Origin: Alphaproteobacteria bacterium
GTDB taxonomy: Bacteria > Pseudomonadota > Alphaproteobacteria > SHVZ01
DNA length: 59,885 nucleotides
Direction: 5' to 3'
Assembly: GCA_016869375.1 (NCBI GenBank)
Contig: VGEH01000005.1
Coordinates: 1-59,885, forward strand
This document shows, piece after piece, positions 23,668-35,772 of the stretch. The position numbers and the translations under genes are program-made. Positions within the stretch are counted from its first letter, which is position 1. Every line of letters begins with the position of its first letter. Under the pieces are notes generated by a model. That model did not search any database, was not told the origin of the DNA, and saw nothing but the letters and a program-made list of their open reading frames with translations.

Positions 23668-25245
23668 CTAGAAATCGGTCTTCACACCGCCTTCGGCCTT
23701 GCGACTCGCGACGAAGGCGTCGAGCGCTTCGGCGGCTGCCGGGTCCATCGGCGGCGGCTGGTAGCGGGCGAGCGTTTCCTTCCAGAGGCGGTTGGACTTT
23801 TCCATCGCCGTCGGCGATCCGGCCTCGCGCCAGCTCTCGAAATTCCGCCAGTCGGAAACCAGCGGCGAATAGAAGGCCGTCTTGTAGCGGCTCTGGGTAT
23901 GCACGGCGCCGAAGTAGTGACCGCCCGGCCCGACCTCGCGGATCGCATCCAGGGCCAGCGTCTCCTCGCTGATCTCCAGCGGGTCGAGATATTGCGAGAC
24001 CATCTGCAGCAGATCGACGTCGACGATGGTCTTCTCGAAGGAGGCGGTGAGGCCGCCCTCCATCCATCCGGCCGAGTGCAGGATGAAGTTGCCGCCGCCC
24101 ATCACCGCACCCCAGAGCGAGAAGACGGACTCATACGCCGCCTGCGCATCGACCGTGTTGGCGGCGCAGGTGTTCGAGGTTCGATAGGGCAGCTTGTAGC
24201 GGCGCGCGAGCTGGCCGCCGACCGTGGCTGCCTTCATGTACTCGGGCGTACCGAAAGCAGGCGCCCCCGACTTCATGTCGACATTCGAGGTGAAGCCGCC
24301 ATAGACCACCGGCGCGCCGGGACGGACGATCTGGGTAAGCGCGATGCCCGCCAGCGCCTCGGCGTTCTGCTGCGCCAGCGCGCCGGCGACGGTCACGGGG
24401 GCCATCGCGCCGGCGAGCGTGAACGGGGTCATGATGATGACCTGGTTCCGCGACGACATCTCCATGATGCCCTGGAGCATCGGCGCATCGAGCCGGAGCG
24501 GCGACGAGGAGTTGATCACCGTGATCAGCGAGGGCTCGCGCTCGAGCTGCTCCTCTGAGATGCCACGGGCGAGCCGCACGATCTCCAGCGCGTCGCGGTT
24601 GCGCTGGCGGCCGAGAGAATAGGCGTGAAACGCCTTGTCGGTGAGCTTGGCGAGATCCGAGAGGCAGTCGAGATGCCGGATCGAGGCATGCAGGTCGACG
24701 GGCTCGACCGGGTAGCCGCCGGTCATGTGGATGATGTTGAAGCTCTGCGCCAGCTTCACCAGGTTGCGGAAATCCTCGTGATTGCCGGGCCGGCGGCCCT
24801 TGTCGGCATCCGAGCAATTGGGGGCACTTGCGACCTGCGCGAAGATCACCTTGTCGCCGCCGAAATCGAGATTGTGCGCCGGGTTGCGCGCATGCAGCGT
24901 GAAGGTGCTCGGCGCCGTCGCGATCTTCTCCTCGATGAAAGCGCGGTCGAAGCGTACGCGCTGCTGTCCTGGCGTGGTCCTGGCGCCGGCTTTGGCAAGC
25001 AAGGCGATGGCGTCCGGGTCGAGGAAATCCATGCCGATCTCTTCGAGGATCGTCAGGGACGCGTTGTGGATCGCCTCGAGCTCGTCGGCACTCAGGATCT
25101 CGACCGGCGGGAAGCGCCGACGCGGCTGGCGAAAGGGAAACGCATCGCCGCCCGCGGCGACTTCCGCGGCTCTCCCGGCATGGCGTGCACGCCCGCCGCG
25201 CCGTTCCCGGCCCTCGCCGCCTTGCCGTTCCGACGGCTCGGTCAT
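23668..25245 (-). CDS. MttB-superfamily (non-pyrrolysine) methyltransferase, paralogue 1
   Basis: 525 aa, uninterrupted. Blocks ELEAIHNASLTILEEIGMDF, VINSSSPLRLD, TPFTLAGAMAPVTVAGALAQQNAEALAGIAL, GGFTSNVDMKSGAPAFGTPE and a C-terminal GGVKTDF are typical of the trimethylamine methyltransferase family. Confidence 0.9.
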   Translation of the reverse strand: MTEPSERQGGEGRERRGGRARHAGRAAEVAAGGDAFPFRQPRRRFPPVEILSADELEAIHNASLTILEEIGMDFLDPDAIALLAKAGARTTPGQQRVRFDRAFIEEKIATAPSTFTLHARNPAHNLDFGGDKVIFAQVASAPNCSDADKGRRPGNHEDFRNLVKLAQSFNIIHMTGGYPVEPVDLHASIRHLDCLSDLAKLTDKAFHAYSLGRQRNRDALEIVRLARGISEEQLEREPSLITVINSSSPLRLDAPMLQGIMEMSSRNQVIIMTPFTLAGAMAPVTVAGALAQQNAEALAGIALTQIVRPGAPVVYGGFTSNVDMKSGAPAFGTPEYMKAATVGGQLARRYKLPYRTSNTCAANTVDAQAAYESVFSLWGAVMGGGNFILHSAGWMEGGLTASFEKTIVDVDLLQMVSQYLDPLEISEETLALDAIREVGPGGHYFGAVHTQSRYKTAFYSPLVSDWRNFESWREAGSPTAMEKSNRLWKETLARYQPPPMDPAAAEALDAFVASRKAEGGVKTDF

Positions 25246-25328
25246 AGTGTGCCCCTCGTCATTCTCGCCCGCGCGGCCGCAAGGTAGTGCAACGTCGCGC
25301 CTCTAGCCACCTTGCTCCAGACCCGACC

Positions 25329-33566: not shown

Positions 33567-34219
33567 TGCCTGAGGACGCCGCCACGGGAACGACGCGGCG
33601 TCAGCTCGTCCTTGCCTGCGGCGCCCTCGCGCGCGAGGTGAACGCGGTGATCGCCGCCAACCATCTGCATCACGTCACGCTGCACTGCCTACCGGCGAGC
33701 CTGCACAACCGACCGGAAAGGATCCCCGAAGCCGTCCGCGCCGCGGTCCGCGAGCATCGCGACGAGTACGACGACATCCTGATCGGCTATGCCGATTGCG
33801 GCACCGGCGGCGAGCTCGACAAGGTCCTCGACGAAGAGGGCCTGCAGCGCCTGCCCGGCGCGCATTGTTACGCGTTCTTCTCTGGCGTTTCCGCCTTCGA
33901 CCGGCGCGCCGAAGAGGACATGCGGGCCTTCTTCTTGACCGACTTCCTGGCGCGCCAATTCGAGACGCTGGTGATCGAAGGCCTCGGCCTGGATCGTCAT
34001 CCCGAGCTGCGCGACGCCTATTTCGGCCATTACGAGAAGGTCGTCTACCTGGCACAGACAGACGATCCGCGCTTGAAGCAAGAGGCGGAGGCCGCGGCGA
34101 AACGGCTCGGCCTGGACTACGAGTACCGATTTGTCGGTCTCGGCGAGCTTACCCCGGCGATCGTCGATTTCGCCGAGGAGCCGCTGCGACCGAAAGAGAA
34201 GAGGATGGGCGAACGATGA
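33566..34219 (+). CDS. DUF1638-domain protein
   Basis: 217 aa. GYADCGTGGELD and HCY blocks typical of DUF1638. TGATG-coupled to the corrinoid gene and ATGA-coupled to mttB paralogue 2. Confidence 0.8.
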   Translation: MPEDAATGTTRRQLVLACGALAREVNAVIAANHLHHVTLHCLPASLHNRPERIPEAVRAAVREHRDEYDDILIGYADCGTGGELDKVLDEEGLQRLPGAHCYAFFSGVSAFDRRAEEDMRAFFLTDFLARQFETLVIEGLGLDRHPELRDAYFGHYEKVVYLAQTDDPRLKQEAEAAAKRLGLDYEYRFVGLGELTPAIVDFAEEPLRPKEKRMGER

Positions 34220-35772
34220 CCGCAGAACGCACCGTCGAACGCGGAGCCGGCGAGCGCCGGGCCCGCCGCAAGGCCGAGGCGAGCGCGGGCGTGCCGCAGC
34301 CGCCCTGGGCGCCGATCCGCAACCCGATGCCGCCGCTCGAGCTGCTCGACGAGGACGGCGTGCGCCGCATCGACGACACCGCGCTCCGCGTGCTGGAAGA
34401 ACTCGGCATCGAGTTCCTGAACGACGAAGCCCTCGACGCTTTCGAGAAGGCCGGCTGCAAGGTCGACCGCTCGACCAAGCTGGTGCGTTTCGACCGCGCC
34501 ATGCTCAAGGAGACCATCGCCAAGGCGCCGCGGCAGTTCCGGCTCTTCGCCCGCAATCCTGAGCGCAACCTCGTCATCGGCGACAACACGATCAATGTCG
34601 GCCCGGTCGGCAGCCCGCCGAACGTCTCCGACCTCGACAACGGCCGCCGCCCGGGCACCTATCAGGACGTCGTCAACCTGATCAAGCTGAACCAGATGCT
34701 GACCTGCGTGCACCACGCCGGCGGCACGCTGACCGAGGCGCTCGACCTCCCCGCCGACTCCCGCCATCTCGACCTCTACCGCGCGCATACTTTCCTCACC
34801 GACCGCTGCTTCATCGGCCGCGGCATCGGGCGCGAGCGCATCACGGACGCGATCGAGATGATCTGTCTCGCCCGCGGCATCACGCACGAGCAGCTGAAGG
34901 CCGAGCCGACGCTGATGACGGTCATCAACGTCAACTCGCCGCGCCGCGTCGACAAGGAGATGATCGCCGGATTGATGGCGATGACCGAGCACGGCCAGCC
35001 CTGCATCGTCACGCCCTTCACGCTGGCCGGCGCGATGAGCCCGGTCACCATCGCCGGGGCGCTGGCTCAGCAGACCGCCGAGGCGCTGGCGGTGATCGCG
35101 CTGATCCAGCTCTTGAGGCCGGGAACGCCGGTGATCTTCGGCGGCTTCACCTCCAACGTCGACATGAAGTCGGGGGCACCGGCCTTCGGCACGCCGGAAT
35201 ATGTCCGCTCGACCATCATCGGCGGCCAGATCGCGCGGCGCTGGGGCCTGCCCTACCGGTCGAGCAACGTGAACGCGTCGAACTGCGTCGACGCGCAGTC
35301 GACGCATGAATCGCTGATGTCGATCTGGGCCTGCATCATGTCGCATGTCCATTTCATGCATCACGGCACCGGCTGGCTCGAAGGCGGCCTCGTCGCCTCC
35401 TATGAGAAGGTCATCGTCGACGCCGAAGCGCTCCACGCGATGGCGGCGTGGCTGAAGCCGATGGATCTCTCCGACGATGCCCTCGCCTTCGAGGCGCTCA
35501 AGGAGGTGCCGCCCGGCGGGCATTTCTTCGGCGCCACCCACACCATGGCGCGCTACGAGCACGCCTTCCACACGCACCTGATCGCCGACTGGCGGAACTT
35601 CCAGTCCTGGCAGGAGGCCGGCGCGCTCAATGCGACCCAGCGCGCCAACGTCGTGTGGAAGAAGCTGCTCGAAAGCTATGTCGAGCCGCCGCTCGATCAG
35701 GGCAAGAAGGAAGCGATCGACGCCTTCGTCGCCAGGCGCAAGACCGAGATCACCCAGCGCGGGATCGTTTAG
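34216..35772 (+). CDS. MttB-superfamily (non-pyrrolysine) methyltransferase, paralogue 2
   Basis: 518 aa from the ATG at 34216; the track ORF's 5' extension overlaps DUF1638 and is discarded. Same conserved blocks as paralogue 1 (TPFTLAGAMSPVTIAGALAQQTAEALAVIAL, GGFTSNVDMKSGAPAFGTPE). No in-frame stop. Confidence 0.9.
   Translation: MTAERTVERGAGERRARRKAEASAGVPQPPWAPIRNPMPPLELLDEDGVRRIDDTALRVLEELGIEFLNDEALDAFEKAGCKVDRSTKLVRFDRAMLKETIAKAPRQFRLFARNPERNLVIGDNTINVGPVGSPPNVSDLDNGRRPGTYQDVVNLIKLNQMLTCVHHAGGTLTEALDLPADSRHLDLYRAHTFLTDRCFIGRGIGRERITDAIEMICLARGITHEQLKAEPTLMTVINVNSPRRVDKEMIAGLMAMTEHGQPCIVTPFTLAGAMSPVTIAGALAQQTAEALAVIALIQLLRPGTPVIFGGFTSNVDMKSGAPAFGTPEYVRSTIIGGQIARRWGLPYRSSNVNASNCVDAQSTHESLMSIWACIMSHVHFMHHGTGWLEGGLVASYEKVIVDAEALHAMAAWLKPMDLSDDALAFEALKEVPPGGHFFGATHTMARYEHAFHTHLIADWRNFQSWQEAGALNATQRANVVWKKLLESYVEPPLDQGKKEAIDAFVARRKTEITQRGIV

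Follow-up and report, generated by a model that had tools for sequence, protein, structure and literature searches.

In aerobically grown Phaeobacter inhibens, fitness genetics revealed a methionine synthase which is divided among homocysteine, B12 and pterin proteins, and which needs both a RamA-like protein and a DUF1638 protein for the reactivation of its B12 (Price et al. 2018, PMC5764234). In aerobic Ruegeria pomeroyi, proteomics and knockouts established that both the synthesis of methionine and growth on glycine betaine depend on MtgC and MtgD, and that N-osmolytes induce MtgB1 and MtgB2 (MttB family), RamA, DUF1638 and the MetF paralogue encoded beside mtgD (Mausz et al. 2025, PMC12478193). 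The latter study also reported that the S. meliloti genome carries the whole set of MtgBCDE and reactivation genes co-localised, and that the MtgC of the roseobacters stands on a phylogenetic branch separate from that of the anaerobes, and the deletion of mtgB1 and mtgC in P. inhibens was described in a later preprint. The present analysis deals with a window of 59,885 nucleotides (the whole stretch of DNA that was analysed, from contig VGEH01000005.1 of an Alphaproteobacteria bacterium), whose central genes most probably encode a modular cobalamin-dependent methyltransferase of the MtgBCDE type, combining the demethylation of betaine-type onium compounds with the synthesis of methionine as a split MetH. 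The window is a further example of the aerobic MtgBCDE system described in 2018 and 2025, and not a new kind of system.

The components shared with R. pomeroyi DSS-3 and with P. inhibens, both of which are also aerobic Alphaproteobacteria, include MttB-family substrate methyltransferase (MT1) paralogues, the B12 hub, the pterin-binding methyltransferase (MT2), the homocysteine S-methyltransferase, the RamA-like protein, DUF1638 and a methylenetetrahydrofolate reductase (MTHFR) encoded beside mtgD, together with dimethylglycine dehydrogenase (DMGDH) and Sox genes for the later demethylations. In those two organisms, however, the genes are scattered, whereas in the window all of them lie within ~28 kb (Table 1), and mtgE, which is usually not co-located (PMC12478193), shares an operon here with mtgC and an mttB gene. 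A DddP-family gene inside this operon and an apparent origin in a lake, rather than in seawater, also set the window apart from R. pomeroyi and P. inhibens. The range of MtgBCDE is extended in this way past the marine roseobacters and the rhizobia, to an apparent freshwater lake bacterium, in which mtgE, as the methionine-synthase module, and mttB2, as a demethylase module, are placed in a single operon.

The S. meliloti cluster is made up of bmt, mttB, mtgC, DUF1638, PF13769, metF, mtgD and ramA, and its counterpart in Paracoccus aminovorans is located on plasmid IV. The proteins of the window are 83% (MtgC), 76% (MtgD), 64% (RamA), 64% (MtgE/bmt), 56% (DUF1638) and 55% (PF13769) identical to those of S. 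meliloti, and MtgC is 79% identical to that of P. aminovorans. On the other hand, the mtgC-adjacent mttB genes of S. meliloti and Paracoccus form a separate, deeper clade that keeps Tyr97 (numbering of Desulfitobacterium hafniense MtgB), which the MttB proteins of the window lack; a C-terminal-domain protein accompanies the MTHFR of these clusters, which is of the two-gene type, and blastp gave no match between the MetF2 of the window and the MTHFR proteins of either cluster at E<=1e-5; and neither cluster includes a DddP-like gene, whereas the window has one.

Among the anaerobes, D. hafniense (MtgABC) and Eubacterium limosum (MtqC, with MtpB, MtcB, MtyB and MthB) share with the window the MT1, the corrinoid protein, the pterin MT2 and RamA, as well as the use of a single corrinoid hub for several MttB paralogues and the conservation of Arg312 and His348 in MtgB numbering. 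These organisms are, however, strict anaerobes without a homocysteine methyltransferase module, and the Y97 and F356 residues of MtgB are not kept in the window.

Canonical MetH unites the same homocysteine, folate and B12 chemistries with reactivation, and reductive reactivation lets its Co(I)/CH3-Co(III) cycle tolerate air. Unlike MetH, the modules of the window are separate proteins, the reactivation is assigned to an ATP-dependent protein of the RACo/RamA type and to DUF1638, with no S-adenosylmethionine (SAM)/flavodoxin reactivation domain found in the window, and MttB proteins load the same cofactor. MetH itself runs a cob(I)alamin cycle in aerobes. The original prediction for this DNA had proposed a corrinoid methyl-transfer kit in an organism that uses O2, and had drawn from it an O2-sensitive cob(I)alamin cycle that runs in an aerobe; the functional reading is supported, but there is nothing surprising in this, because MetH already uses such a cycle.

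Direct observation covers the genes present in the window, the domain identities and motifs of their products, the layout of the operons and the conservation of synteny. The core is an operon of five co-directional genes, in the order mtgE, dddP-like, mtgC, DUF1638 and mttB2, which diverges from the PF13769 gene and ramA, the two starts being ~40 bp apart, and which is also present in other loci among those compared (designated L007, L025, L086, L088 and L091). The corrinoid protein MtgC, which had been listed beforehand with a DxHxxG motif, has both B12-binding domains and the sequence DIHDIG at residue 116 of the open reading frame (ORF) that begins at 32856, and no second corrinoid protein was found in the window by domain searches. 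The DUF1638 gene shares 1 nt (TGATG) with mtgC and 4 nt (ATGA) with mttB2, so the proposed translational coupling on both sides is plausible from the arrangement of the codons. At the head of the operon, MtgE begins at the ATG at 30450, which is preceded by GAGGA and lies inside the ORF 30027-31457, and it has a GGCC zinc motif at residue 276; the NCBIfam model that it matches, NF005718, is labelled 'betaine--homocysteine S-methyltransferase'. Given the presence of mtgE, the kit would not only demethylate but also act as a split methionine synthase.

The methyl-H4folate:corrinoid methyltransferase and the MTHFR had been listed as lying 14 kb further on. Both are present, not as a detached pair but at the opening of a co-directional string on the minus strand, composed of metF2, mtgD, DMGDH2, phnD-like, cupin and GFA genes, in which the metF2 stop abuts the mtgD start without a gap, a gap of 44 bp follows mtgD, and the last four genes overlap at their start and stop codons, as in the ATGA shared by the end of DMGDH2 and the start of the phnD-like gene. 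The solved-structure matches of MtgD are MeTr and the folate domain of MetH, and the role given to MetF2 is taken from the R. pomeroyi proteomics (PMC12478193). Profile searches against Pfam and NCBIfam confirmed, with very strong scores, all of the family assignments made in the original prediction, the Pfam match of the MTHFR being weak. Every component on its parts list is present where it had been placed, although the list was incomplete, given that it overlooked mtgE, the PF13769 gene, the identity of the M24 protein as a DddP-family member, and the GFA, cupin and PhnD-like genes at 45073-46879.

The reactivation module would be formed by ramA and DUF1638, and probably also by the small gene directly 5' of ramA. 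The activator, recognised from the outset as RamA/RACo-type, was given the whole ORF 28079-30142, but its start is more likely to be at 30109 or 30064, because the 98-aa PF13769 gene occupies 30114-30410. The product scores 371 bits against the AcsV model, its best solved structure is RACo (3ZYY, 304 bits, full length), and the Cys motif of the [2Fe-2S] domain is present. The PF13769 gene is likewise found beside ramA in L086, L088 and L091, tblastn places a homologue near ramA in L007, L025 and L065, and the S. meliloti homologue opens the metF-mtgD-ramA string of that genome. From this association, the PF13769 protein may be a third, hitherto unrecognised partner of RamA and DUF1638 in reactivation.

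The PF06253 matches of both MttB paralogues are full-length, covering positions 3-500 of the 500 in the profile, and their ORFs translate without an internal stop, which means that there is no UAG/pyrrolysine (Pyl) codon, as had been predicted. They score 307 (MttB1) and 283 bits (MttB2) against TIGR02369, the equivalog model for Pyl-MttB, below its cut-off of 525 bits, and only 162 and 112 bits, respectively, against the solved MttB structure 7XCL. The two proteins are 51% identical to each other, with 40-46% identity between either of them and the MttB encoded beside mtgC in S. meliloti and Paracoccus. The phylogenetic placement recommended with the original prediction was followed in part, as a crude tree made by neighbour-joining only, with D. 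hafniense MtgB, transcribed from an alignment, as the outgroup, and it sets the S. meliloti/Paracoccus proteins in a third, deeper clade. Protein searches, whose cluster counts rest on the best 120 matches, gave >120 database clusters at >=73% identity for MttB1, from Alpha- and Gammaproteobacteria, and just 8 clusters at >=72% identity for MttB2, followed by a plateau at 60-66%, i.e., a thin clade.

In D. hafniense MtgB, the glycine betaine site is formed by Y97 and F356, which make pi-cation contacts, and by R312 and H348, which contact the carboxylate (Picking et al. 2026, PMC13080624). In the alignment, the carboxylate-binding pair has counterparts in both paralogues (R355/H390 in MttB1, R348/H383 in MttB2), but the aromatic pair is replaced by A139/G398 in MttB1 and by G132/G391 in MttB2. 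The same pattern, with the Arg and His kept and both aromatics lost, is found in nearly all of the 88 aligned proteobacterial homologues, none of which has F356, and Y97 is retained only by the S. meliloti/Paracoccus clade. The residues of the active site indicate an acidic onium substrate for MttB1 and MttB2, without identifying which one.

The original prediction had left the substrates of both paralogues unassigned, which is fair for MttB2, but only partly so for MttB1. A DMGDH-type gene usually comes directly after the genes of the MttB1 clade, and in a metagenome-assembled genome (MAG) of Comamonas (L035) DMGDH and SoxBDA do so; because the clade is usually followed by DMGDH and sarcosine oxidase genes, the simplest reading of the gene context is that the substrate of MttB1 is probably glycine betaine. 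In Microbaculum, the DMGDH that follows the MttB1-like gene is 62% identical to DMGDH1. For MttB2, an acidic onium compound is proposed, also from gene context.

Taken as a system, these proteins would operate as follows, with the direction of methyl flow, the dual function and the operation under air being modelled on the published genetics of relatives. MttB1 or MttB2 would bind a carboxylated quaternary amine and transfer one methyl group to the Co(I) of MtgC, from which MtgD, a bidirectional MT2, would pass it from CH3-Co(III)-MtgC to tetrahydrofolate (H4F), and the MetF2-type MTHFR would then convert CH3-H4F to CH2-H4F for the oxidation or assimilation of C1 units. As an alternative, MtgE would send the methyl group of CH3-Co(III)-MtgC to homocysteine, yielding methionine, and when an external methyl donor is lacking, MtgD could run in reverse, with CH3-H4F loading MtgC. 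Any MtgC inactivated as Co(II) would be re-reduced by the RamA/RACo-type ATP-dependent activator and DUF1638, probably together with the PF13769 protein. The demethylated products would pass to the two DMGDH-type enzymes and to SoxBDAG, and the substrate of MttB2 probably enters through the adjacent Opp-type ATP-binding cassette (ABC) transporter.

The corrinoid genes (MtgC, MtgD, MtgE, RamA and DUF1638) might instead constitute a housekeeping split methionine synthase, with the MttB proteins either unrelated or using another corrinoid protein. The position of MtgE at the head of the operon would favour this, as would the fact that the same five genes of P. inhibens were first identified purely as methionine synthesis genes (PMC5764234). 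It is a very unlikely explanation, nevertheless, since one operon, which is kept in genomes with MttB2 homologues 63-91% identical, unites MttB2 with DUF1638 and MtgC in what appears to be translational coupling, the window has no second corrinoid protein to offer, and the mtgC and mtgD mutants of R. pomeroyi fail on glycine betaine even when methionine is supplied (PMC12478193). Scarcely credible is the view that an O2-sensitive anaerobic methyl-transfer kit, previously unseen outside the strict anaerobes, has turned up for the first time in an aerobe. The purified non-Pyl MttB enzymes MtgB, MtpB, MtcB, MtyB and MthB do all come from anaerobes, and the window does encode O2-dependent enzymes, but the genetics and proteomics of aerobic P. 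inhibens and R. pomeroyi and the description of the S. meliloti cluster (PMC5764234, PMC12478193) have made the statement that characterised non-Pyl MttB systems come from strict anaerobes outdated, and the proteobacterial MttB homologues number in the thousands.

The O2-dependent enzymes announced for this region (sarcosine oxidase, Rieske, 2-oxoglutarate (2OG) and PhyH enzymes) are real, and they could act as alternatives to the MttB route, rather than in one pathway with it, if MttB were confined to micro-oxic or anoxic conditions and the GbcA-like Rieske, 2OG, PhyH and Sox enzymes took over when O2 is plentiful. P. inhibens does alternate MtgBCD with the Rieske enzyme GbcAB, although the trigger there is the supply of cobalt and cobalamin (preprint), a GbcA-like gene lies within the window, and the name of the closest MAG gives a depth of 80 m. 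Against this, R. pomeroyi and P. inhibens use MtgBCD when cultured fully aerobically, the 2OG oxygenase gene is co-directional with DMGDH1 and beside MttB2, which suggests joint action, and the GbcA-like gene has no upstream cobalamin riboswitch, unlike gbcAB in P. inhibens. An exclusive use of the MttB route at low O2 is, then, improbable.

A number of points weigh against the preferred interpretation, i.e., an aerobic MtgBCDE system with a dual role. Orthology with the R. pomeroyi and P. inhibens proteins that have been validated experimentally, among them SPO2160, SPO1863, SPO1884, SPO2041, SPO2162, SPO2108/2134 and PGA1_c13350, is indirect, through S. meliloti and domain architecture, and the methionine-synthase role could be redundant if the genome, of which the window alone was seen, has a canonical MetH. 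The purified Bmt/MtgE of P. inhibens was reported to make methionine directly from dimethylsulfoniopropionate (DMSP) or betaine without cobalamin (PMC12366255), so that under some conditions MtgE may do without the corrinoid hub; the literature is divided here, since betaine-homocysteine methyltransferase-like proteins have been argued to be MtgE modules (PMC12478193). In addition, the cage that holds glycine betaine in D. hafniense MtgB (Y97/F356) is missing from both paralogues, so that the substrate of MttB1 is called from gene context alone, and genes of the MttB1 clade are accompanied by an iron-dependent alcohol dehydrogenase (Fe-ADH) gene and an enolase-superfamily gene, which would be superfluous for glycine betaine catabolism.

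The only new lead in this window is the linkage of the MttB2 clade with DddP-like and DddL-like genes and with an Opp-type transporter. Nine neighbourhoods of MttB2-clade genes were compared (the window, L025/L088, counted once, L085, L086, L087, L089, L091, L092 and L093). A DddP-like M24 gene is adjacent to the MttB2-clade gene in eight of the nine, and the neighbouring M24 proteins, where measured (L025, L087 and L089), are 72-89% identical to that of the window; an Opp-type ABC transporter is adjacent in six, and the pair of cupin and GFA genes is found in four. This pair adjoins the MttB2 operon in other genomes, being placed beside both the M24 and MttB2-clade genes in L089 and L091, and in L089 the PhnD-like, cupin, GFA, M24 and MttB genes make up one operon, the only case in which a PhnD-like gene lies beside a gene of this clade. 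In L085, on the other hand, the Fe-ADH, enolase, M24 and MttB2 genes form an uninterrupted string, with no corrinoid genes in between. The clustering of the components of the region in general is not a matter of chance, as related and distant genomes alike carry these sets of genes. No publication in the library that was searched links DddP with MttB genes.

The M24 protein itself matches the solved DddP structures at 330-334 bits, with ~50% identity, and although its score against the DddP model is below the NCBIfam equivalog cut-off of 600 bits, the functional fungal DddPs are also just 32-50% identical to RdDddP. In the numbering of the 430-aa ORF, the metal ligands of RdDddP (D295, D297, D307, H371, E406 and E421) correspond to D284, D286, D296, H360, E394 and E409, and its proposed catalytic residues (Y366 and D377) to Y355 and D366. 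An identity as creatinase was rejected for this protein, given that no creatinase structure matched at E<=1e-8, in contrast with the 330 bits of the DddP structures. Two distinct DMSP-lyase-like genes are found in an apparent freshwater lake bacterium, i.e., that of the DddP family (31576-32826) and the PF16867 cupin (45462-46064).

On this basis, it is tentatively suggested, as a possibility rather than an expectation, that MttB2 is not a glycine betaine enzyme, but that it represents a new specificity in the MttB superfamily, as part of a conserved and undescribed module that would be plugged into the MtgC/MtgD/MtgE hub. This module might include MttB2, the DddP-family M24 protein, the DddL-like cupin, the GFA protein, the PhnD-like protein, the Opp-type transporter and the pair of 2OG oxygenase and DMGDH, and candidates for its substrate would be acidic onium compounds such as DMSP or, among the three-carbon betaines, beta-alanine betaine. 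If true, a corrinoid-dependent route for the methyl groups of DMSP or DMSP-like compounds in aerobes, parallel to DmdA, would be new, and, given a new substrate, more methylated osmolytes would be known to be drained through cobalamin in oxic waters, with a larger environmental demand for vitamin B12.

Table 1. Coordinates of the genes discussed, in the numbering of the window, with the matches on which their naming is based.
Feature	Positions	Strand	Matches and remarks
SoxBDAG heterotetrameric sarcosine oxidase	16121-21257	plus	SoxB TIGR01373, 693 bits; final N-demethylation step
MttB1	23668-25245	minus	Non-Pyl MttB-superfamily substrate:corrinoid methyltransferase, MtgB-like; PF06253, 683 bits
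Fe-ADH	25287-26474	plus	Fe-ADH and ADH_Fe_C; divergent from MttB1
Enolase-superfamily (MR/MLE) enzyme	26481-27611	plus	MR_MLE_C and MR_MLE_N; best solved structure 3OZM, 141 bits
RamA/RACo-type ATP-dependent reductive activator	28079-30109	minus	Fer2 ([2Fe-2S] ferredoxin), RACo_linker, Raco_middle, RACo_C_ter; ASKHA domain
PF13769 ('Virulence_fact') protein, 98 aa	30114-30410	minus	PF13769, 72.5 bits; directly 5' of ramA
MtgE/Bmt, homocysteine S-methyltransferase module	30450-31457	plus	PF02574; NF005718, 507 bits (cut-off 338)
DddP-family M24 metalloenzyme (DMSP-lyase-like)	31576-32826	plus	DddP model, 414 bits; 334 bits to RdDddP 4B28
MtgC, corrinoid (cobalamin-binding) methyl carrier hub	32865-33566	plus	B12-binding_2 and B12-binding
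DUF1638 protein	33566-34219	plus	PF07796, 106 bits
MttB2	34216-35772	plus	Non-Pyl MttB-superfamily methyltransferase; PF06253, 650 bits; last gene of the mtgE-dddP-like-mtgC-DUF1638 operon
DMGDH1, dimethylglycine/sarcosine-dehydrogenase-type FAD enzyme	35769-38195	minus	DAO, FAO_M, GCV_T, GCV_T_C; folate-binding GcvT domain
2OG-Fe(II) oxygenase	38209-39231	minus	Gene call with PF03171 on Joint Genome Institute (JGI) contigs; solved-structure matches of the EFE/IPNS family; G+C at third codon positions (GC3) 0.88
Opp/Dpp-type ABC transporter	39466-45124	plus	SBP_bac_5, two permeases, double ATPase
GFA-family (PF04828-like) zinc protein	45073-45465	minus	76% identical to the L088 PF04828 gene, 50% to the L089 gene; Cys-rich motifs
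Cupin, DMSP_lyase family	45462-46064	minus	PF16867, 124 bits; HAHPAEEIY motif
PhnD-like solute-binding protein	46064-46879	minus	PF12974, 91 bits; 65% identical to the L089 gene
DMGDH2, second DMGDH/sarcosine-dehydrogenase-type enzyme	46876-49287	minus	57% identical to DMGDH1
MtgD, pterin-binding methyl-H4folate:corrinoid methyltransferase (bidirectional MT2)	49332-50273	minus	Pterin_bind; NF005719, 380 bits (cut-off 259)
MetF2-like MTHFR	50274-51164	minus	PF02219, 33 bits; solved MTHFR 7XG9, 165 bits
PhyH dioxygenase	56018-56842	minus	Divergent from the GbcA-like Rieske gene
GbcA-like Rieske oxygenase	56937-58136	plus	437 bits, below the GbcA cut-off of 670

Given that the window has ~67% G+C, its six-frame ORF lists are crowded with spurious antisense frames, and the genes were picked by their third-position GC bias and checked with Pfam, NCBIfam and the genes called on identical public contigs. 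The 961-aa ORF 38209-41094, on the minus strand, illustrates how a high G+C content may mislead ORF lists, as it is mostly spurious, with only its last 340 codons forming a real gene (the 2OG oxygenase) and the remainder being antisense to the SBP_bac_5 gene. The apparent gap of 1.27 kb at 38195-39466, considered as non-coding or regulatory DNA, was rejected as such, since the 2OG oxygenase gene lies there, masked by this long antisense ORF. A scan of the whole window with Rfam, at gathering thresholds, gave no matches, and hence no cobalamin or SAM riboswitch 5' of any gene of the window, mtgE and the GbcA-like gene included. The last 1.7 kb (58136-59885) yielded no convincing gene, the candidate ORFs of 146 and 243 aa (E<=0.001) and of 121 aa (E<=0.01) having no Pfam match.

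The window is not a known plasmid, as megablast against plasmids returned only short matches, chiefly over mtgC and ramA. An identical MttB2 protein is encoded on contigs from two JGI metagenomes (3300020200 and 3300020193), and only one genome is close at the species level, namely that of the MAG 'Alphaproteobacteria bacterium K_Offshore_80m_m2_107', which has the same synteny from MttB1 to DMGDH1, with 84-97% amino-acid identity; a second genome with the same layout, GCA_964482145.1, has 91% identity. The DNA appears to come from a stratified lake, in a sample taken at 80 m, and the K_Offshore_80m series is one which we take to be from Lake Tanganyika.

Among the other genes of the region, the 2OG oxygenase lies 14 bp 5' of DMGDH1 on the same strand, and this pair is kept in L085, L086 and L088. 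The Opp/Dpp-type ABC transporter is the probable importer of the MttB substrates, and its SBP_bac_5 binding protein is 78% identical to the one found directly after MttB2 in L007, with the linkage of such a transporter also seen in L085, L087, L088, L091 and L092. No reductase partner of the GbcA-like Rieske oxygenase was seen up to the end of the gene calls in the window. The Fe-ADH has weak similarity to the models for 4-hydroxybutyrate dehydrogenase and the GbsB choline dehydrogenase, and it is linked to MttB genes in L085, L088 and L090. The enolase-superfamily protein has no close characterised relative, but it is 67% identical to a Microbaculum homologue, whose gene sits in an Opp-ABC/Fe-ADH operon that diverges from the MttB1-like gene. 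Of the 55 solved structures that this protein matches at E<=1e-20, the best are similar to acid-sugar dehydratases and none is a betaine epimerase, so that a role as an HpbD-type betaine epimerase was not supported.

Immediately downstream of MttB1, on the same strand, there is a gene for a pentapeptide-repeat protein of 437 aa (22227-23540, minus; 240 bits), a weak homologue of which (34% identity) is found just upstream of the MttB gene in L057. A VapBC-type toxin-antitoxin pair (21451-22133, minus), composed of a PIN domain protein and a FitA-like ribbon-helix-helix antitoxin, lies between this gene and the sox operon. The segment 51259-56005 (minus) encodes a beta-lactamase-family protein (546 aa), a DUF2817 protein and a prolyl-oligopeptidase of family S9, the genes for which share their direction with PhyH, upstream of them, and with metF2 and mtgD, downstream of them. 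Finally, the first part of the window carries a second Opp/Dpp-type ABC transporter (51-7200), with an SBP_bac_5 protein, a permease, a permease-ATPase fusion and an ATPase, which adjoins a gene for a DUF885 protein, and an assimilatory sulfite/nitrite reductase cluster (12186-15682, plus) with a CysG-like siroheme synthase N-terminal region, DUF2849, a NIR_SIR hemoprotein and DUF934, upstream of which an Lrp/AsnC regulator is encoded.

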